A DNA stretch of 64,000 nt from Candidatus Thalassarchaeum betae (GCA_003193925.1 PSPG01000005.1:17840-81839); one strand, 5' to 3'; positions 20,261 through 32,503 are shown, counted from the stretch's first letter. Notes: generated from the sequence alone by a model not told the origin. Made by a program: numbers and translations.

Positions 20261-21037
20261 GTGAGTCGTGACGCTCCCCTACTGGAGATTCGAAACCTGC
20301 ATGCTGGAATCGACGATACGCCGATTCTCAAGGGCGTCGACATCACGATAAATCCGGGTGAGATCCATGCCATAATGGGACGAAACGGGAGCGGCAAGAC
20401 AACCGCCGCGAACATCATCATGGGGCACCCAGACTACAAGGTCGAGAAGGGGGATGTGCTGCTCTCCGGAGAGGACCTGCTGGAGCTCGAGCCGTGGGAG
20501 AGAGCACGCAAGGGCGTATTCCTCTGCTTCCAGTACCCACAGGCCGTCCCGGGACTGCAGGTCGGTAACTTCCTCAGGAAGTCCCTTGCCAGCATCAAGG
20601 GCGAGGAAGCCGCCAAGGGCACGAAGTTCAGAAAAACCCTGAAGGATGCCATGGAGGCTCTCGACATTCCTCGCAGCTTCCTCTCGAGGTACGTCAACGA
20701 CGGTTTCAGCGGAGGTGAGAAGAAGCGCTTCGAGATCCTCCAACTGCTCATCCTGCAACCGAAGCTGGCAGTGTTGGATGAGACCGACAGCGGCCTTGAC
20801 ATAGATGGCATCAGAATCGTCGCTGCCGGAATCAATTCGGCCATCAGGGGGACTGACTCAGGAGCCCTGATCATCACCCACTACTCAAGAATCCTCGAAT
20901 ACGTCCAGCCGGACAAGGTCCACGTTCTGATGGGAGGTCGGATAGTTGCTACAGGAGGCCCTGAACTCGCCATAAAACTAGAAGAACGAGGATACGAGTG
21001 GTTGGACTCGAAGGCGGAGGCGGAGGGACTAGCATGA
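20261..21037 (+). CDS. sufC: Fe-S assembly ATPase SufC
   Basis: [39 protein letters not shown]. Confidence 0.97.
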
Positions 21038-22449
21038 TGCCATCCAACCAGGAAGCACGGGAGACCGTCGGGGACTACAAGGCCGGATGGCACGATCCGG
21101 AGGACTCCACCATCCGCTTCGACTTCGGGCTCTCCGAGCAGGTCGTCAGGGACATCTCGGCCATCAAGGAAGAGCCGCAGTGGATGACCGACATCCGCGT
21201 CAAGGCGTACCACCACTTCATGGAGCGCCCGATGCCCACATGGGGTTCCACCGAGTTGCTCAACTCGATCGAGTTCGACAAGATCTGCTACTTCCTGCGC
21301 TCGGGCGAGGGCACTGAGACGGACTGGGATGACGTTCCAGAGGACATCCGCAACACCTTCAACAGACTAGGCATACCCGAGGCCGAGCAGAAGTGGCTCT
21401 CGGGAGTGACAGCCCAGTACGAGTCGGAGGCCGTCTACCACAGCATCCGCGACGACCTCGAGGAGCAGGGTGTCATCTTCCTCGACATGGATAGCGGTCT
21501 GCGCGAGTACCCTGACATCGTGAAGAAATACTTCTGCAGCCTCATCCCATACCAGGACAACAAGTTCAGCGCGCTCAACACCGCCGTATGGTCGGGAGGC
21601 TCGTTCATCTACGTCCCCAAGGGGGTCCACGTCGAGATGCCGGTGCAGGCCTACTTCCGCATCAACGCCAAGAACATGGGTCAGTTCGAACGCACGCTTA
21701 TCATCGCCGACGAAGACTCATCGATTCACTACGTCGAGGGCTGCACCGCCCCGACCTACTCAACCGATTCGCTGCACAGCGCCGTCGTTGAGCTATTCGC
21801 GCTGCCCGGCGCATACATCCGCTACACCACGATCCAGAACTGGTCGAACAACGTCTACAACCTAGTCACCAAGCGCGGCATCGCACACGAGAACTCGACC
21901 ATCGAATGGGTCGACGGCAACATCGGATCGAAGTTGACGATGAAGTACCCCGCAGTGATCCTCAAGGGCGAAGGCTCGCACGCGGAAGTCATCTCTGTAG
22001 CCTACGCCGGCGAAGGAATGCGTCAGGACGCCGGAGCGAAGGTGCATCATCTGGCGTCGAACACCACCAGCAAGATCCTCTCCAAGAGCATCAGCAAGGA
22101 CGGCGGCCGCGGAAGCTACCGGGGCATGGTGACGGTGAGCAAGAAGGCAGACAACTGCAAGGTGAGCGTCGTCTGTGACGCACTCATTCTCGACGGGCAA
22201 AGCCGCTCCGACACCTATCCCACGATGGAGATCAAGAACCCCTCGTGCCGCTGCGAACACGAAGCATCGGTCAGCAAGGTGAGCGACGACCAGTTGTTCT
22301 ACCTGATGAGCCGCGGGCACACAGAAGACAAGGCGCTGGCACTGATCGTCAATGGATTCTTCGAGCCATTCGTCCGCGAACTGCCGATGGAATACGCCGT
22401 CGAGCTCAACCAGCTGATGGCCCTCGAGATGGAAGGCAGTATAGGCTGA
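21034..22449 (+). CDS. sufB: Fe-S assembly protein SufB
   Basis: [42 protein letters not shown] overlap with sufC. Confidence 0.97.
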
Positions 22450-22464
22450 TGGCGGGGTGAGCCA

Positions 22465-23574
22465 TTGGACGCCGCCGCAGAGTACCTGTCCCTCGACGAG
22501 CCCGACAGGTCCAACCATCTCTGGAAGTACACGCCATGGCGCAGGGTTCATCCCACCGGTGACATCACCAGCATCCCGGACGGCATTGGATCGCCCCGAC
22601 TCAGGCTCATCGGCCTAGACGGAGGCGATGCACCCGATGGCATCCGACTGCAGGAGGGAGTGTCTTCGGTCTCCGTACTGCCGCAGAGCGATGTCGTCAC
22701 GAGTTCGTTCTTGCAGGCTGTTTCAGCAAGTTCGCAATGGACCCTACATGTCGAGCCAAACTTCTCCTCGCAACACCCTGTGATGCTCGACATCGATGCG
22801 GGTGACTCAACCTCCGTCCTGCATCTGGTACTAGACGTGGGGCGCTTGTCCGAGTTGGAACTGATCACGCGGGTGAGTGGTTCCGGGGAGTGGTTCGGCT
22901 TCCTGCGTACAGGCGAGATCGGAGAGGGCAGTATCCTCAACGACGTGGTAGTCTGCGTGCAGGACGGGGGGACCTTGCTCCGGGTCGATTCGATAGCAAT
23001 CGGCAGGGACGCGCAGGTGCGCGCGGGAACTGTCTGTTCCGGCTCCGAGCGGACCAAAGCGGACCTGCGCTACCGGATGGGCGAGCCCGGAGGAAACCTC
23101 AGGATCCTGGGCTCGGTGCTCTCGTCTGATGGGATGCATCTGGACCACCACTTGGAGATACACCACGATGCGCCCGAGACGTTCAGCCGGCTGGCCTGGA
23201 ACTCCGCATGTGGGGGCAAGAGCAGGACTGTAGGGACGGGGATGCTCAGGGTCGCCGACGGCTCACGCGGGACGGATGCCGCTCAGCTCTTCCACAACCT
23301 GCTCCTCTCCAAGGACGCTGAGGCGGACTCGATCCCCGAGTTGGAGGTCCTCGAGCACGAGGTCGTCGGATGCGGTCATGGGACGGCCAACGGGCCCATC
23401 GACGAGGACCAACTGTTCTACCTCGAGACCAGGGGCTTCGACCCCTCCGACGCGAGGGGTTCCCTGATCGCCGCATTCCTGAACTCGACCCTGTCCGAGA
23501 TGGGAAGCGAGGCCCTGCACGGCTGGCTGGTCAGGCTGCTGGCCTCTGAGTTGGAGTCACTGGGCGCCCCCTGA
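22465..23574 (+). CDS. sufD: SufD-like Fe-S assembly protein
   Basis: WKYTPW, NLLLSKDAEADSIPELEV, CGHG...GPIDEDQLFYLETRG. Confidence 0.9.
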   Translation: MDAAAEYLSLDEPDRSNHLWKYTPWRRVHPTGDITSIPDGIGSPRLRLIGLDGGDAPDGIRLQEGVSSVSVLPQSDVVTSSFLQAVSASSQWTLHVEPNFSSQHPVMLDIDAGDSTSVLHLVLDVGRLSELELITRVSGSGEWFGFLRTGEIGEGSILNDVVVCVQDGGTLLRVDSIAIGRDAQVRAGTVCSGSERTKADLRYRMGEPGGNLRILGSVLSSDGMHLDHHLEIHHDAPETFSRLAWNSACGGKSRTVGTGMLRVADGSRGTDAAQLFHNLLLSKDAEADSIPELEVLEHEVVGCGHGTANGPIDEDQLFYLETRGFDPSDARGSLIAAFLNSTLSEMGSEALHGWLVRLLASELESLGAP

Positions 23575-23586
23575 GGCAGCAAGCGA

Positions 23587-24372
23587 TTAGGCCGAGCGGT
23601 CCCTATAACTCGACAGAAGGGCTGTCATCAGAAGACCGGCGGCTGCGCCGAACATCATTCCCTGTTCCTCCATCCCAGAGCCGGCCAAGTCCCGAAAGGC
23701 GAGTGTCATGGCCCCCGTCATCGGCACCACGAAGACGACGAATCGCCCGAGCCACTCCTTTGGAGTAGGGGCCCTGCCCATTGGCCTGAGGGTGACTGAA
23801 CTGGACTTCTGGATGACCTGCCATTCCGCCTTCTGGGCGTCAACCCTGAGCCTCTGCAGGACTGCGGGCCTGATTCCGGGGTCGGCCGAGCCCACGTGCA
23901 GCGTCTCGCCTCGGCCGGTCACCAGCTTCAGCCTGCCTAGGTCGGCCCTGCGCTCGAGAAGCCTCTCGGTCAGTGCCGCGGCAGAGGGCGCATCGAGGCC
24001 GTGCAGGTCGACCACCAGCACCCCTCTGTCTCGTCTGACCTGCTCCTCGACGGTCCAAGCCGTCCCCGAGCCACTCCTTGGAGCCCTCTCCTCGATTGGT
24101 GAGAGGATGGCTCGGACCTTGGTCACCTCCTGCTTCCTTTCGGCCTCGACGTTGCGGCCTGAGCGCGACGACTCGGCCATTCTGTAGTACGCGAATGTGG
24201 TGACGATGACCCCGCCGGCAAGGCCAGCCACGATGCCAGAGCGCACAGACCCCATCACATCCGGACTGTCTAGGCCACTGAGGAAGATGGCGACGAAAGT
24301 GGCCATGACCGCGACCATCGAGCCTACTACCCCGCCGAGCCATGCAGCATCGCGGAACCCGAGGTCGGCCAT
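23587..24372 (-). CDS. Membrane protein with a central Smr-like domain
   Basis: Two N-terminal TM segments, VVDLHGL...LKLVTGRG...H (Smr motifs), then two C-terminal TM segments. Confidence 0.7.
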   Translation of the reverse strand: MADLGFRDAAWLGGVVGSMVAVMATFVAIFLSGLDSPDVMGSVRSGIVAGLAGGVIVTTFAYYRMAESSRSGRNVEAERKQEVTKVRAILSPIEERAPRSGSGTAWTVEEQVRRDRGVLVVDLHGLDAPSAAALTERLLERRADLGRLKLVTGRGETLHVGSADPGIRPAVLQRLRVDAQKAEWQVIQKSSSVTLRPMGRAPTPKEWLGRFVVFVVPMTGAMTLAFRDLAGSGMEEQGMMFGAAAGLLMTALLSSYRDRSA

Positions 24373-24464: not shown

Positions 24465-25214
24465 GTGGGAGTTCTAGCTAATGGGCTCGGAGATCGGGTC
24501 AGGGAAGTCAAAGTCAGCAGAGTCCTGGTAGCCGCCGCTGGCGGATACCTGCTTCTGATGTTCATAGCGCCTCTGGCGATGCCCGAGGGAACGGTACCTG
24601 AGCTCTCCGGACGCGCCAACACATTCGACTACGCCACCGCGAGCGGGTGGGGGAACCAGGATAACGGCGAGGGTGCGAGTGTGGGGCACGACCAATCGGC
24701 TCACGGCGGGACATTCGCTTGGACGGAGTTAAACCCGGTATGGGGATTCGTGTACGCCGTCGGTGACCTGAACTGCCACCAGAAGTACGAGCGCTCATGG
24801 AAGATCAACGGGAATCAGATGCCGATGTGCACCCGGGACGTTGGAATCATCTTCGGATTCGTGGTCGGTGCCGCCTTGTTCGGATGGCGCGGCCTCAACC
24901 GCTGGACGGTTCGCGACACCTTCCTCTCGATATTCCCGAACGAGAGGCTGGAGCCCGTTTACTTGAGCGACAGGAGGATGACGGCCATGCTCGCGATCAT
25001 CGGACTGGGGCTGCTGCCGATGGCAGTTGACGGGTTCACCCAGATGTTGACCGACTACGAGTCCACCCACCTCATCAGGCTGGTCACCGGCTTCGCAGCC
25101 GGGCTGGTTGTCGGCTGGTGGTTCTCATCCTCGCTGTCCGCCCGGACCAAGTACTTCGGGGATGACCCACGCCTAGTGGTCCTGCCGGCCGACGCAAGAC
25201 TAGTGACCAAGTGA
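24465..25214 (+). CDS. DUF2085-like membrane protein
   Basis: LNCHQKYERSW...NQMPMCTRDVGI, DGFTQ, RLVTG. Probable GTG start at 24465. Confidence 0.75.
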   Translation: MGVLANGLGDRVREVKVSRVLVAAAGGYLLLMFIAPLAMPEGTVPELSGRANTFDYATASGWGNQDNGEGASVGHDQSAHGGTFAWTELNPVWGFVYAVGDLNCHQKYERSWKINGNQMPMCTRDVGIIFGFVVGAALFGWRGLNRWTVRDTFLSIFPNERLEPVYLSDRRMTAMLAIIGLGLLPMAVDGFTQMLTDYESTHLIRLVTGFAAGLVVGWWFSSSLSARTKYFGDDPRLVVLPADARLVTK

Positions 25215-26575: not shown

Positions 26576-27325
26576 CTAATCCTCTGTGTAGTCTGTGAAC
26601 TGATCCCTAGCGAGATGCGTCATGCCCATGCCGAGGAGTATGAACAACGGACCTAGGAATAGCATGCCTCGACTCCACAGTCCGAAGAATGAGAGCCACC
26701 AGGTGCGTCGGTAGTGATCGCCGCGGTAGGCCTCCAGACCGCCCACCATCCCTGCGAGCCCGGCCAGCAGCGTCAATCCAGCGATGGTGGTTCCGATGAG
26801 CACCGACTCGCCGAGATGGCTCTCGCCGGTCATGTCGTACTCGTACAGCCCGTCTCCCGGAGTCAGAGTGACGGAAATCTGAGCGTGGTCCCCGGGAACC
26901 AGCAGTATCCGAACGGTAACGTTCCCGGGGTGGTCGACAAGCAGCGTCGAAGAGCGTCTGGGAACGTCCTCGACCGAGAAACGCCCGCCTGAGTCGGTGA
27001 TGTCGTGGCCTATCTCCAGGTCGTCGAAATCGAGGACGCTCACCCTGACGCCCTCAACCGGGTCGCCGCCCGTGGTGTTGTCCTCCAACGCCGTGCTCAC
27101 TATGCCATTGACATTGGCGACCCCATCGGAGCTGTCCAGTTGGCCACTCAGAATCTCGCCGACGTCGGCGGATATCAGAGCGACTCCAAGAATTGCTCCA
27201 AGCAGGCTGCCGACGAATATCATCAACGCCCCCGCCACCCTAGTGGCTGGGTCTATCGAGAGGTCATGCAGCCAGAGTTCCATGGCGCTGTAATCGTCGA
27301 ACTCGTCGTCGCTCGAGTCGTTCAT
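26576..27325 (-). CDS. Membrane protein with a carboxypeptidase-regulatory-like (beta-sandwich) domain
   Basis: TM segment, PVEGVRVSV...TDSGGRFSV motif, two or three C-terminal TM segments. Confidence 0.6.
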   Translation of the reverse strand: MNDSSDDEFDDYSAMELWLHDLSIDPATRVAGALMIFVGSLLGAILGVALISADVGEILSGQLDSSDGVANVNGIVSTALEDNTTGGDPVEGVRVSVLDFDDLEIGHDITDSGGRFSVEDVPRRSSTLLVDHPGNVTVRILLVPGDHAQISVTLTPGDGLYEYDMTGESHLGESVLIGTTIAGLTLLAGLAGMVGGLEAYRGDHYRRTWWLSFFGLWSRGMLFLGPLFILLGMGMTHLARDQFTDYTED

Positions 27326-28320: not shown

Positions 28321-28396
28321 GTACGAACGGCGCTCCATCGATGTTAAAATAGGTCTTTGAGCGGATTGAACCTGAAAGCAACACGGAGTGTTGAAC

Positions 28397-31300
28397 ATGG
28401 CTGCAACTAGAACGGCGGCATCGCGGAGAGTACCTCTGCTGCTCATCGCCACCATGCTCCTGTCCCTCCTGACCCCAATGGCTCTAGCAGAGCCTGAGTC
28501 TGATGATTCGATGCTAGAAGTCATGTCGGGTGACCTGACGGACTTTACTCCCTCTATTGAGGGCAAGCGGTACATGTTCACCGACGCTGCCGAGCCCGTC
28601 TTCTCGGCCACCAGCTTCCTCAAGATGGAGTGGAGGGACGCGGGCTACCCGGGACTCATCCTGCCTTTCTCGCCAGGCTACCTCAACTCAAGGTCCTCGA
28701 CCCGCACTTGCGAGAACGCTTGGAGCCAGGGTGAATCAGGCAACATCTCTACTGCTAGCGGGACGGTTGCCGTGACAGTGCAAAAGATCTCGGCGAACTC
28801 GGCCATACTGGTGGAGGACGGGCAGATCATTCCGTCGACCACCGTCAATGACATCGTCTCGACCTGGGAGTCGACCATCTACCCTACCGACACCTCGTAC
28901 TTCGGCACCCCTCCGGACGTCGACAACAACTGCCAGATCGAAATCGTCCTGATCTCGATCGACGGCGCGGGGGGCACTGGGGGATACTACTCCCCCGGAA
29001 TCTCATCCGTCAGGGAGTCGGTCTTCGTCGACGTCGATGACTTGAGTTGGAGGAACACCATTCTCGCGCACGAGTTCGAGCACCTACTACACAACGCTCG
29101 TGACCCCTACGAGTACCTGTGGATCGACGAGGGCGCGGCCGACATGGCTGTCTACCTCTGCTTCGGAGTCACGGGCACGCTGACCGGGCACGCCAACGCG
29201 TGGTCGCAAGACAGCAGCCTCAGTGTGAGGTGGTGGAACGGCAGAATTGCCGACTACGGTGCCGGCTTCATGTTCCTGATGTACCTCGCAGACAAGCTCG
29301 GTGGAGGGGCCGCGATACAGCGCCTCGTTGCCGACACCGCCACCGGGGGGGTCGCTATCGAGAACCTCGCGCAGAGCCCCGAGACAGGCTCTACTGCCAT
29401 CGGGACCACGATGAGCGAAATCTATGCCAACTTCAGCGCCGCCGTCTCTCTGGACAGCGCGCAGGGAGCCTTCGGGTTCTCGAACCTCGACCTGACCACA
29501 GGATGCATCGCCGCGTACATCTGCAAAGCCCAGATGAGCGGTTACAACGACCAGTGGGTGGACGGCTGGAACAGCTCCAGCCAGACCATCGAGGGTTGGG
29601 GGATGAGGGCCTACAAGTTCACCCAAGGCTCCGGGGCTCCGCTCAATCTGATGGTGCAACCGACACAGTTCGGCTTCGACGGCGCCATCATGGCCAAGGA
29701 TGCTGACACGGGTACATGGTCGATGAGCAGCCTGAGGATGGACTCGGGCACTGGAGCCGGGACGGGGCTCGTTCACGGCTTCGGCAACACCACCGACGAG
29801 GTGTGGCTGCTGACATGGTACGAGTCCATGGTCAGCGACTGCGACTACAACTACGCCAGTTGCGGCATCACCACCGGAACTTACCCCACCGCGTCGCTGA
29901 CAGTCTACGCCGGTCTCATCACGGACCCGGCTGAGGTGTCGATCGATACCATCATGTCCTTTGACAGGGATGGCAACAACCTTGACGACAGCGTCCGGAT
30001 CGACCTCGAGGTGGTCTCGAACGCGTTCTTCGAGATACTCGAGGTCACAGTCGAAGCCTACGTCAACAACACGCTGACCGACTCTGTGGTGTTCGACATC
30101 ACCGCCGGCAACAGCGTACCCTCTCCGAGGAGCGTCTGGTTCACGCCGCCCTCCTCGGGCGACTGGACCTTTGGAATCAGGGTCCGCGATATCACCGGAG
30201 AGGTCGTCGACCAAGCCTTCGCCCTGCCTATGACTATTGCTAACATGGAGCCGATCGCCTCCGGTTCGATGTCCACCTCGATTACTCAAACGTGGCTCCC
30301 AGTGAGCATGTTCGGCTCGGGCTACGACTCATGGGGCTTCGGTCAGCTCAACGGTACTTTCAGCCACAACGAGACGCCCACTGGGTACGTCTGGGACCTC
30401 GGTGACAACAACTCCTCTGGACTGAAGAACCCCGTCCACTCATACCTCAATCCGGGGAACTACCAGATTGTGCTGGTCGTACAGGACCAAGGGGGCTACT
30501 ACTCCGAGCCGCAGTCGTGGAACATCTCAGTCAGTGACATCTCCGACCCGGTCCCGGAGATCTCGGTAGACGGGGTGGTGATGATCGACGATCTGGTGCT
30601 GCTGACCGACCAGAGGGTGCAGTTCTCAGCCAGAGGGACCACGGACAACCTCCCACTGGAGCAACTCGATTTCACCTGGGACTGGGGCGATGGCCAGTCG
30701 GAGTACGGTCAAGGCCTGGCTGAGGCCGGGCACTCGTGGGTCGACGGCAGTGCCGATGGGATCATCTACACGCTCATCCTGACCGTTGATGACGGCAACC
30801 ACATCGTCGAGCATTCGCTGTACATCAGAGTGCTGAACCGCCTGCCCAAGCAGGTCTTCGACGAGCCACTCCAAACCTACACACTGACACCGCTGACAAT
30901 GCCTACCGTATTCGAGGACTCTGACGGGATGATCGTGGAGTACAACTGGTACTTCGAGGGCGGCGTCAACCTCGGTGGCTCGGGAATGAGTCTGACCTCC
31001 AACTTCTCCGCTACCGAGTCGGTGCTCCAGAACCCGAGCGTCGGATGGCTCGAGCCCGGCATGAAGAACGTCACCATCGAAGTCACAGATGACGATGGCA
31101 ACTCCTCGATCGCCACCCTCTGGGTGCAGGTCCTGAACCAGCGGCCCGTGGCCGTCTTCTCGAGACCTGCGGACGGCACTGTCGACACCGTCTACACCTT
31201 CGAAAGCGCCTCCTTCGATCCGGACGGCGACACCACCCTGCTTCAGACGATATGGGAGATCTCCGAGCTCGACGAACCGGTGCACAACGTCTCCTCGGTC

Positions 31301-32503
31301 AGCCACACCTTCCTCGAGCCCGGATTATACACTATCAGCCTCACAGTCATCGACGACAGGGGCCTGTCGTCGGCCACCAAGTCATACTCAATCAGGATTG
31401 AGAACCCGCTGCCGGTGCCTGCGCTCACCTTCAGCTGCCCAAGCATCAACGGCACCGTGCTGGATGGCATCCCAGAGGACGAAGGAGTCGTCGTCTGGCA
31501 AATCCCGCACACCCCCGATGGCGGCGCATTCGTCGCACCCGGGGACCCGATCAGGTTCGACGGCTCGGGGAGCTACGACGCCGACCCCCTGTTCACCGGA
31601 AGGACATCCACCGACTCGAACGACCCCGAGTGGAACGGCATCGTCTCGTGGATCTGGGACTTCGGCGACGCCAGTCCGTCGGCCCATGGCCCCGTGGTCT
31701 GGCATGCCTACGAGATACCGGGGGCCTACACAGTCACCCTGACCGTCGTCGACGGATTCGAGGGCGGCGAGACCAACACCACCTCGATGACCGTGTACGT
31801 CTCCAGGGCGCCTATCATCCTGACCAACGACCCGATCTCAGCCGATTACGTCAGCATCGGCGATCTGGTCCTCCTGAATGCCAGCGCCACCGACGCCGAC
31901 CTGACGGACGGCATAGAAGCCTGGCTCGATGTCGATGCCTCAGACGACAGCGACGGCGACGGCGATCCCACCAACGACCAGGACAGGCCCCTCACCGGTA
32001 TCCTGACCGTCAGATGGGACCTCAACGCCATGCAGGACGCCAATCTGGATGGCGACTTACGCAACGACTGGCTATGGGTCAATCAGACGTGGAACCAGGC
32101 CGGCGAGATCAGGATTGTGATGCAGGTCTGCGATGGAGTCGCTGTCTGCTCTTCCAGAGACTACGTCATCACCGTGCTGGCCCTTCAGGAGGATGACCGT
32201 CCCAAGTCTCTGGCTGACCTGACGTGGAGGGACCTGGTCCCGAACAAGGCGAGTGCGGGCCTGCTGGCCCTCGTAGCGGCCGTCCTGATTCTCGGGTGGT
32301 TTGTCATGCGAGAGAAGGACGAGGACGAACTGGACGCCGAGGGGATGCTTGAGACCTACGACGTCGCTGAGGTGGAGGCCGAAGGGGGGCTTCCGGGGAT
32401 GGACCAGCACAAGCCCCCTCCCCAACCGAAGTACCTGACGGTCGAAGAGCGAAGAGACAAGGAGTCCGGATACATCCGACCCATCCGGACGAGGAGGCGC
32501 TGA
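28397..32503 (+). CDS. Secreted zinc metalloprotease (HExxH...E, M30/M6-like) with multiple PKD domains and a C-terminal TM anchor
   Basis: LAHEFEHLLH...WIDEG; PKD signatures WDLGD, WDWGDG and WDFGD; TM segment AGLLALVAAVLILGWFVM. Confidence 0.85.
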   Translation: MAATRTAASRRVPLLLIATMLLSLLTPMALAEPESDDSMLEVMSGDLTDFTPSIEGKRYMFTDAAEPVFSATSFLKMEWRDAGYPGLILPFSPGYLNSRSSTRTCENAWSQGESGNISTASGTVAVTVQKISANSAILVEDGQIIPSTTVNDIVSTWESTIYPTDTSYFGTPPDVDNNCQIEIVLISIDGAGGTGGYYSPGISSVRESVFVDVDDLSWRNTILAHEFEHLLHNARDPYEYLWIDEGAADMAVYLCFGVTGTLTGHANAWSQDSSLSVRWWNGRIADYGAGFMFLMYLADKLGGGAAIQRLVADTATGGVAIENLAQSPETGSTAIGTTMSEIYANFSAAVSLDSAQGAFGFSNLDLTTGCIAAYICKAQMSGYNDQWVDGWNSSSQTIEGWGMRAYKFTQGSGAPLNLMVQPTQFGFDGAIMAKDADTGTWSMSSLRMDSGTGAGTGLVHGFGNTTDEVWLLTWYESMVSDCDYNYASCGITTGTYPTASLTVYAGLITDPAEVSIDTIMSFDRDGNNLDDSVRIDLEVVSNAFFEILEVTVEAYVNNTLTDSVVFDITAGNSVPSPRSVWFTPPSSGDWTFGIRVRDITGEVVDQAFALPMTIANMEPIASGSMSTSITQTWLPVSMFGSGYDSWGFGQLNGTFSHNETPTGYVWDLGDNNSSGLKNPVHSYLNPGNYQIVLVVQDQGGYYSEPQSWNISVSDISDPVPEISVDGVVMIDDLVLLTDQRVQFSARGTTDNLPLEQLDFTWDWGDGQSEYGQGLAEAGHSWVDGSADGIIYTLILTVDDGNHIVEHSLYIRVLNRLPKQVFDEPLQTYTLTPLTMPTVFEDSDGMIVEYNWYFEGGVNLGGSGMSLTSNFSATESVLQNPSVGWLEPGMKNVTIEVTDDDGNSSIATLWVQVLNQRPVAVFSRPADGTVDTVYTFESASFDPDGDTTLLQTIWEISELDEPVHNVSSVSHTFLEPGLYTISLTVIDDRGLSSATKSYSIRIENPLPVPALTFSCPSINGTVLDGIPEDEGVVVWQIPHTPDGGAFVAPGDPIRFDGSGSYDADPLFTGRTSTDSNDPEWNGIVSWIWDFGDASPSAHGPVVWHAYEIPGAYTVTLTVVDGFEGGETNTTSMTVYVSRAPIILTNDPISADYVSIGDLVLLNASATDADLTDGIEAWLDVDASDDSDGDGDPTNDQDRPLTGILTVRWDLNAMQDANLDGDLRNDWLWVNQTWNQAGEIRIVMQVCDGVAVCSSRDYVITVLALQEDDRPKSLADLTWRDLVPNKASAGLLALVAAVLILGWFVMREKDEDELDAEGMLETYDVAEVEAEGGLPGMDQHKPPPQPKYLTVEERRDKESGYIRPIRTRRR

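Follow-up and report, generated by a model that had tools for sequence, protein, structure and literature searches.

A stretch of 64,000 nucleotides from the genome of Candidatus Thalassarchaeum betae (GCA_003193925.1 PSPG01000005.1:17840-81839; "the window" in what follows) holds a gene at 23587-24372 that encodes a membrane protein of 261 residues. With high confidence, this protein is polytopic with cytoplasmic termini, and a genuine Smr domain with a helical extension forms a loop that is clamped to the inner face of the membrane by transmembrane (TM) hairpins, one N-terminal and one C-terminal. What it does is stated more tentatively: the preferred reading is a membrane-tethered factor for the surveillance of ribosomes and mRNA, which would cleave in most of the lineages that have it and only bind in those whose catalytic motifs have decayed.

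In bacteria and eukaryotes, Smr domains serve as the conserved sensors of collided ribosomes and as nucleases acting on them; archaeal Smr domains are, to our knowledge, rare and unstudied. The membrane form occurs in one of the most abundant archaeal groups of the surface ocean and also in marine Myxococcota-type bacteria. Should its target be the ribosome, one would have to ask how prokaryotes arrange translation quality control at their membranes, and archaeal no-go decay would gain its first candidate nuclease; if not, the Smr fold has here been put to a new use. The intact and decayed lineages make up a ready-made natural series for experimental comparison.

The Smr domain and its place at the membrane

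That the open reading frame (ORF) is a real gene and not a chance open frame is confirmed by comparison: by its homologues, its order-wide occurrence, and a low ratio of nonsynonymous to synonymous substitution rates (dN/dS). Homologues align over the full length of the protein with expectation values (E) as low as 1e-132, and the same methionine is the start in most of them, which supports the start codon; homologous forms of 283 residues arise from longer upstream open frames. The gene is present in a single copy in its own genome (an assembly of 1.48 Mb, 92% complete). The names carried by its homologues assign the window to Poseidoniales (Marine Group II archaea), near "Candidatus Thalassarchaeum".

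The case for Smr homology is strong. It is made by profile comparison and by transitivity, the window protein's own score being below threshold (see below). Aligned by hhalign with ten Smr proteins that pass the Pfam cut-off, the family matches over 100 columns at 98.9% probability (E 2.4e-17). A profile search of 1.84 billion representative sequences recovers many Smr proteins from beyond the family; among the 35 hits of this search that were scanned, 23 match Smr at E ≤ 0.01 and 11 lie above the Pfam cut-off, eukaryotic CUE-DUF1771-Smr proteins included. Within the family itself, the Pfam model PF01713 is matched above its cut-off by four of twelve diverged members (L016, 26.8 bits; L017, 29.3; L018, 26.3; L022, 33.8), below it by five, and by three not at all; a Smr match at E ≤ 1 is found in 16 of 27 family members. 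The textbook motifs VDLHDL and TGRGxHS appear in members outside the window's genus, the sister family included. Searched as a single sequence against the sequences of the PDB, the protein has one match, the Smr domain of N4BP2, at E 1.3. Nothing useful came of the NCBIfam search, and the ESM Atlas returned only clusters of the family itself; automatic annotation calls one of these "putative Smr domain-containing protein". PF01713 has no match at E ≤ 10 in the organism's own genome; as that search also misses the Smr gene itself, it hardly shows more than that a canonical Smr protein is absent.

Both signature motifs of Smr domains are present in the window protein, as V121-D-L-H-G-L126 and as V151-T-G-R-G155 followed by H159. 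In the structural models they stand where they are expected, DxH after strand 1 and (T/H)GxG after strand 2; DxH is the catalytic motif of SmrB and Cue2 (PMC11806357, PMC10897456). The full-length AlphaFold model (predicted local distance difference test score, pLDDT, 85.7; predicted template-modelling score, pTM, 0.64) has the beta-alpha-beta-alpha-beta-beta order of solved Smr domains (the last strand being optional) within residues 118-197, with strands at 118-122, 148-151, 184-188 and 192-197 and helices at 128-140 and 167-182. Confidence is low in a lineage-specific insertion after TGRG, ETLHVGSAD (pLDDT below 50 at 156-160). The best Foldseek matches of this model are the N4BP2/B3BP Smr domains 2d9i, 2vkc and 3fau (probability 1.00, template-modelling score by target 0.56-0.68, E 0.02-0.08). 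When residues 75-198 are modelled alone on an alignment of 58 rows, pLDDT rises to 91.7 and pTM to 0.85, and ranks 1 to 10 in Foldseek are all Smr-domain chains or Smr-containing subunits of plastid polymerase (E 0.004-0.04; template-modelling score by target 0.54-0.67 against stand-alone Smr domains). VIA-align gives Z 7.4 with 2vkc (root-mean-square deviation 3.3, 92 residues), 7.3 with 2zqe, the Smr domain of Thermus thermophilus MutS2 (deviation 2.2, 72 residues, 28% identity), and 5.1 with E. coli YdaL. Other fold relatives follow close behind in the same comparison, namely SepF, IF3-C and, with Z 6.2-6.7, the DNase I-like subdomain of RNase E; related IF3-C-like folds score 5-6.7.

The domain is enclosed by four predicted membrane helices. 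Hydropathy (Kyte-Doolittle, 19-residue window) marks segments at residues of about 10-32, 44-63, 208-226 and, less strongly, 238-255; the helices of the full-length model run from 6 to 32, 39 to 70, 204 to 230 and 235 to 254. The distribution of charge, averaged over 142 sequences, indicates how the protein lies in the membrane: lysine plus arginine come to 3.89 in the 15 residues after TM2 and to 2.63 in the 15 before TM3 (aspartate plus glutamate, 0.35), and to 0.11 in the TM1-TM2 loop and 0.94 in the TM3-TM4 loop, both of which are acidic (aspartate plus glutamate, 2.4-2.5). The C-tail is also basic (YRDRS in the window protein). Because the flanks of the domain and the C-tail are basic and the short loops acidic, the positive-inside rule predicts a cytoplasmic location for the Smr domain and both termini, with the TM1-TM2 loop outside. 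The tether is short: in the AlphaFold model the final Smr strand ends at residue 197 and the TM3 helix begins at 204, a linker of about 6-10 residues, and the domain as modelled sits within a few nanometres of the bilayer.

An earlier note on this DNA, made from the sequence alone, had read the gene as two TM segments, the Smr motifs DLHG and VTGRG..H, and two more TM segments. Sequence, hydropathy and model place all of these where it put them, with DLHG at 122-125, VTGRG at 151-155 and the histidine at 159. Its assignment of the central domain to the Smr fold is borne out by profile-profile comparison, by the family members above the Pfam cut-off and by the fold matches, and the charge pattern agrees with its expectation that the domain is cytoplasmic.

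Distribution, motif decay and bacterial relatives

The taxonomic distribution of the gene has now been examined. A wide profile that includes diverged forms (A5) finds it in 205 of 251 Poseidoniales genomes: in 81 of 124 genomes of the window's family and 123 of 124 of the sister family, in 59 of 65 high-quality genomes, and in 22 of 25 genera. (The genomes counted here and below are related and so not independent; codes such as g14 and f4 are labels of the genome sample for genera and families.) A profile built on the close family (A1) had picked up the gene in 84 of the class's 301 genomes, and within the sister family in 8 of 141, a pattern that suggested a patchily distributed accessory gene. 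The A5 result shows the A1 scan to be an underestimate, and the idea is dropped.

The gene is always the divergent neighbour of a gene for a DUF2085 membrane protein: this is so in eight of eight loci annotated with Pfam, and in eight further loci an ORF of matching size lies in the matching place. The opposite flank varies (SufD, HTH_10, PCMT, HEAT, GH57 or aldehyde dehydrogenase). A functional partnership with DUF2085 was considered and set aside: the block formed by DUF2085 and the adjoining gene for a thymidylate-kinase-like (Tmk-like) protein persists in all five inspected genomes that have no Smr gene, so the arrangement is read as old synteny and not as proof of partnership. No remnant of the Smr gene was found by tblastn in these five genomes (E > 0.9).

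Architecture is less uniform than position. Members from the window's family have four helices. In the large genera g14, g15 and g17 of the sister family (Marine Group IIa, MGIIa) the protein has about 212 residues, with two helices ahead of the Smr domain and one after it, and retains DxH and GRG; in the MGIIa genera g16 and g20 it has four helices and has lost both motifs, and protein and synteny are kept. Across 301 Thermoplasmatota genomes there are 12 Pfam-level Smr matches, of which five are to the membrane family and seven to small soluble forms or weak matches in other families. Small soluble Smr open frames of 89-104 residues (DLHGL...HGHNLG) are found in genus g29 of family f4 (L061, L063, L066), and one MGIIa genome (G090, genus g14; locus L062) has, besides the membrane form, a soluble Smr protein of 155 residues with a long basic N-terminal extension.

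The DxH histidine is retained in 100 of 145 family sequences. On a FastTree tree of 142 of these (three fragments shorter than 200 residues were dropped), rooted on the sister-family forms, it is ancestral and has been lost at least twice, each time inside one clade of 49 leaves (support 0.975). The second glycine of GxG is gone from all 49 leaves; 45 of them also have no histidine. The window's own lineage keeps DxH and GxG. Pairwise dN/dS is 0.04-0.10, and 0.046 for a pair without the histidine (L007/L009), values that large synonymous distances (0.8-2.7) make rough. Motif loss under purifying selection implies that the protein is kept in the decayed lineages for something that does not need catalysis. 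Family-wide, the most invariant residues include W106, R168, W184, R196, P217, G242 and G246, and not the histidine.

The best non-archaeal hits of the whole-library search are unnamed and uncharacterised bacterial proteins of 145-190 residues, from metagenome-assembled genomes (MAGs) labelled Myxococcota, Deltaproteobacteria and Alphaproteobacteria HK-STAS-MYXO; one relative is named "DNA-nicking Smr family endonuclease" by its source. They align from their own N-termini to profile positions of about 78-190, some of the alignments extending into TM3, and hhalign matches the archaeal to the bacterial family at 99.7% (E 1.3e-25, 126 columns, residues 76-203). A hydrophobic C-terminal segment follows the Smr domain in 51 of 56 representatives; among 105 further homologues, 104 have this segment and all 105 have DxH. 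The window protein has the features of this tail-anchored family: the helix before the Smr domain, the invariant W106, and TM3 about 6-10 residues after the domain. No conserved partner emerges from the ten bacterial neighbourhoods that were compared. At one of the ten, in a Myxococcota-type MAG (L033, 1519-4569, plus strand), a gene for a Ski2-like helicase (DEAD plus DSHCT) adjoins the Smr gene, a suggestive neighbour for RNA surveillance.

Other arrangements of the domain turned up in the same searches. Proteins of 160-212 residues from the crustaceans Scylla, Palaemon and Meganyctiphanes (P0226, P0245, P0265) have an N-terminal hydrophobic segment and a C-terminal Smr domain; they may represent a third way of placing Smr at or across a membrane, or may be secreted. 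P0148 (616 residues) carries the module of pre-Smr helix and Smr domain in three tandem copies, and P0239 (465 residues) three Smr repeats. P0207 joins Smr to a membrane helix and Peptidase_M23, and P0169 joins it to two membrane helices and zinc ribbons.

A proposed surveillance role at the membrane and its competitors

Why should a cell clamp a Smr domain to its membrane? The window's lineage has kept DxH and GxG, on which the metal-independent cleavage of RNA by SmrB and Cue2 depends, so that the likeliest function is that of the studied DxH-bearing Smr proteins. SmrB, Cue2 and NONU-1 cut mRNA at collided ribosomes by way of DxH (PMC11806357, PMC10897456); MutS2 binds collided ribosomes without cutting (PMC10897456). 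All the Smr proteins treated in these papers have the ribosome as their site of action. For the events on the ribosome, the cleavage of RNA and the meaning of the anchor, we infer the following. The Smr domain would recognise ribosome-bound mRNA, typically at collided ribosomes, and nick it. Upstream ribosomes would run off the cut end and be recycled by Pelota and ABCE1, while the nascent chain would be handled by an NFACT (Rqc2-like) protein. The membrane anchor would limit this activity to polysomes at the membrane, that is, to the mRNAs of membrane and exported proteins. Clades without the histidine and GxG would retain the protein to bind or sense without cleaving, as has been reported for Bacillus subtilis MutS2. 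Downstream rescue factors are encoded in the genome: NFACT_N scores 178.6 bits, an ABCE1-type Fer4_RLI domain lies in a frame of 645 residues, and a Pelota-like match of 144 bits covers its model and falls below the TIGR cut-off.

A more ambitious form of this proposal is on shakier ground, and is put forward as doubtful. Membrane Smr proteins might constitute a separate, undescribed branch of collision surveillance devoted to membrane polysomes and common to Marine Group II (2TM-Smr-1/2TM) and marine Myxococcota-type bacteria (Smr-TM). In archaea this would be the first nuclease of the no-go-decay type feeding Pelota/ABCE1 and NFACT, and its repeated catalytic inactivation would signal a change of role, from cutter of mRNA to sensor or holder of stalled ribosomes.

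A number of results weigh against surveillance of ribosome-bound mRNA by this protein, and some of them already at the level of Smr identity. The window protein matches PF01713 over residues 121-180 with 16.5 bits (E 0.0094), below the cut-off of 25.7. The close-family profile A1, searched against PDB sequences, finds no Smr chain and only weak helix matches to NhaA and gp160. The Foldseek E values of the isolated domain and a Z of about 7 are middling, with fold relatives scoring nearly as well; the fold evidence thus backs the sequence evidence and is no substitute for it. Of 145 sequences, 45 carry another residue (A, L, M, K, Q or R) at the position of the DxH histidine, and with about one third of the sample lacking it, what the family conserves at its functional core is not cleavage. 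Some lineages do without the gene, which is therefore dispensable: searches of two genera found no copy (0 of 20 and 0 of 7 genomes) and those of a third only a few (3 of 13), and in five of five inspected genomes without it SufD directly abuts DUF2085. Its neighbourhoods supply no link to translation, neither the archaeal ones (DUF2085, Tmk-like, Suf) nor the variable bacterial loci. Evidence of expression is thin: RNA-library contigs from two studies overlap the gene at 23518-23750 (X1) and 23992-24139 (X5) only, the other runs covering flanks only, and these two short contigs give a hint of transcription in which carry-over of DNA may have a part. Geometry is a further difficulty. A ribosome docked at the translocon has its large subunit at the membrane and its small subunits on the far side; judged from this general geometry, a modelled domain on so short a tether would hardly be able to reach the small-subunit interface. 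In SmrB-disome structures the Smr domain lies between two small subunits (PMC11806357). For these two reasons, the short tether and the SmrB site, the earlier note's inference of a nuclease for ribosomes stalled at the translocon is, as a literal picture, not endorsed here.

Four other explanations compete with surveillance. The resemblance to Smr might be spurious, an unrelated alpha/beta domain having come by its DLHG and TGRG by chance: the sub-threshold Pfam score, the failure of A1 to find Smr in PDB sequences, and the nearly equal fold scores of SepF, IF3-C and RNase E subdomains all point that way. This is barely credible, given the hhalign match to Smr proteins, the family members that pass the Pfam cut-off, the recovery of CUE-DUF1771-Smr and other Pfam-passing Smr proteins by the library profile, and the location of both motifs at the structural positions expected. 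An altogether different matter is whether the genuine domain needs to cut anything. It could be a non-catalytic membrane adaptor, its Smr domain only binding ribosome, RNA or protein, and its conserved function consisting of that binding and of the membrane part with its GxxxG, possibly as a dimer. The clade of 49 leaves (without the second glycine, 45 members also without the histidine, and a dN/dS still of about 0.05) speaks for an adaptor, as do the g16 and g20 forms that have outlived both motifs and the absence of the histidine from the most invariant residues; ribosome binding by inactive Smr domains is on record for MutS2 and SmrA (PMC10897456). An adaptor is nevertheless unlikely: DxH is kept in the window's lineage, in the largest MGIIa genera and in every one of the 105 bacterial relatives, which implies selection for catalysis in most lineages.

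If the domain does cut, its substrate need not be a collided polysome. The protein might be a membrane endoribonuclease that starts mRNA decay independently of collisions, a functional analogue of RNase Y or RNase E. Its intact DxH and GxG, a short tether that keeps the domain near the membrane, the resemblance of its fold to the DNase I-like subdomain of RNase E, and the housekeeping-like character of the gene (single copy, order-wide, stable synteny) would all suit such a role, which is nonetheless rather improbable: the available texts on SmrB and MutS2 (PMC11806357, PMC10897456, the SmrB preprint) describe no Smr protein that degrades RNA in bulk independently of collisions, several genera can dispense with the gene, and 45 of 145 sequences have lost the motifs under continued constraint on the protein. 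DNA is the other conceivable substrate. The Smr domains of MutS2 and N4BP2 nick DNA in vitro, a bacterial relative bears a DNA-nicking name, and the domain is predicted to be cytoplasmic and at the membrane, as a DNA-nicking or defence nuclease directed, for example, against incoming foreign DNA should be. The earlier note had offered a membrane-associated defence nuclease as its alternative, and there the locus disagrees with it: no PADLOC-DB family matches at E ≤ 0.01 for the window protein (P0001), a bacterial relative or an MGIIa form; the gene lies in no defence island, and its place next to housekeeping genes is the same throughout two families; and as a single-copy gene under strong purifying selection it lacks the turnover of an arms race. 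A DNA-nicking or defence role is thus highly improbable.

The locus, and comparison with known systems

Table 1. Features of the Smr gene, its product and neighbouring genes in the window (residue numbers refer to the 261-residue protein)
Feature	Position in window	Strand	Basis
ORF of the 2TM-Smr-2TM protein (P0001)	23587..24372	-	ATG to stop, 261 aa + stop
TM1 (predicted), residues ~10-32	24277..24345	-	hydropathy peak 2.18; model helix 6-32
TM2 (predicted), residues ~44-63	24184..24243	-	hydropathy, model, loop charge
Cytoplasmic pre-Smr extension (predicted), residues 75-111	24040..24150	-	model helix 75-96, then invariant W106
Smr domain, residues 112-198, beta-alpha-beta-alpha-beta-beta	23779..24039	-	Pfam, hhalign, fold matches 2vkc, 2zqe, 3fau, 2d9i
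DxH motif, D122-L123-H124	24001..24009	-	sequence
T-G-R-G 152-155, GxG motif of Smr domains	23908..23919	-	sequence
TM3 (predicted), residues ~208-226, invariant P217	23695..23751	-	hydropathy, model; basic stretch before
TM4 (predicted), residues ~238-255, invariant G242xxxG246	23608..23661	-	invariant across whole family; model
DUF2085 membrane protein, divergent neighbour	24465..25214	+	Pfam, 79.2 bits
Tmk-like protein, 450 aa	25215-26567	-	TMK domain, residues 8-175, 101.5 bits
Membrane protein with CarboxypepD_reg-like domain	26576-27325	-	beyond the Tmk-like gene

Genes for SufC, SufB and SufD (20261-23574, plus strand) converge on the Smr gene; SufD is identified by Pfam, and SufC and SufB from their translations only. 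On the other side the start of the DUF2085 gene is uncertain: its open frame extends from 24342, and GTG at 24465, chosen as the probable start, leaves 92 bp between the two divergent genes. No publication about DUF2085, an uncharacterised family, was found by title or abstract. The Tmk-like protein continues for about 270 residues beyond its kinase domain without a Pfam match and has a weak PADLOC match (PDC-M51B, E 8.8e-7); a Tmk-like protein of similar length and domain content adjoins DUF2085 in all eight annotated loci, in both Poseidoniales families. In the related loci L013-L024 the conserved block runs on past the CarboxypepD_reg protein to a glutaminyl cyclase (Glu_cyclase_2, about 265-280 bits). 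A long open frame of 1371 residues lies a few kilobases from the Smr gene, at 28388-32503 (plus strand), and large ORFs flank the Smr gene in two related loci (L019, 1642 residues, no Pfam match at E ≤ 1e-5; L021, 1598 residues, of the GH57/glucodextranase type).

How much of this has been seen before? That Thermoplasmatota have Smr domains is known: the SmrB preprint, in its available text, places archaeal Smr "mainly in Asgardarchaeota and Thermoplasmatota". The name Smr had also been attached automatically to one cluster and one bacterial relative. A membrane-embedded Smr architecture is described in no title or abstract found, nor in the available main texts of the SmrB and MutS2 papers (the supplements may contain lists of architectures); in those texts the word "membrane" occurs 0 times in the SmrB preprint, and in the MutS2 paper (PMC10897456) only under blotting methods. 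Bacterial Smr proteins have been sorted into three clades, all of them soluble (PMC10897456), and the membrane-clamped Smr protein is an architecture outside that scheme, as far as the available text sets it out.

Set beside E. coli SmrB, the archaeal protein is alike in being small, in having as its main module a Smr domain with DxH and GxG, and in the conserved extension that precedes it (PMC11806357). SmrB itself is a soluble protein whose extension hooks onto uS2; the archaeal protein has four predicted membrane helices, and its extension matches that of the bacterial tail-anchored family, a motif apparently different from the SmrB hook. No SmrB chain is among the sequence, profile or fold matches of the window protein, and similarity is remote. 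The DUF1771-Smr proteins of eukaryotes (N4BP2, Cue2, NONU-1) provide its best structural matches (2vkc, 2d9i, 3fau; 24-28% identity), and diverged archaeal members share the signature TGRG.HS...RP.V with the N4BP2/Cue2 type. In the CUE-DUF1771-Smr protein P0260, recovered by the family profile, profile positions 85-178 fall on residues 482-574, an alignment that reaches upstream of the Smr domain. These proteins differ in being soluble, eukaryotic, and recruited through ubiquitin-binding CUE/UBA domains.

MutS2 provides a fold match in its T. thermophilus Smr domain (Z 7.3) and, in B. subtilis, a parallel to the decayed lineages: the DxH histidine is lost and a function, presumably binding, is kept (PMC10897456), and such loss with retention of ribosome binding is a repeated theme among Smr proteins (PMC10897456, PMC11806357). 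It differs in its other parts, a Pfam scan finding neither MutS ATPase/clamp nor KOW domains in the 261-residue protein.

RNase Y and RNase E of bacteria are membrane-bound. The comparison with them is one of working principle only, a nuclease-type domain stationed on the cytoplasmic side of the membrane; no sequence relationship joins the families, and the likeness to RNase E extends to the similar fold of its DNase I-like subdomain.

The bacterial tail-anchored Smr proteins come nearest. They have in common with the archaeal family a pre-Smr helix with a W...W...TH motif (LPWA..RPW..TH in the bacteria), and, as in the archaea, their Smr domain (with DLHDL and TGRG.HS) is followed directly by a hydrophobic C-terminal anchor. 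They differ in having no N-terminal TM hairpin, so that the domain is anchored on one side only, and their neighbourhoods vary where the archaeal synteny is stable. To judge from the alignments, the archaeal protein looks like a tail-anchored Smr protein to which an N-terminal hairpin has been added.

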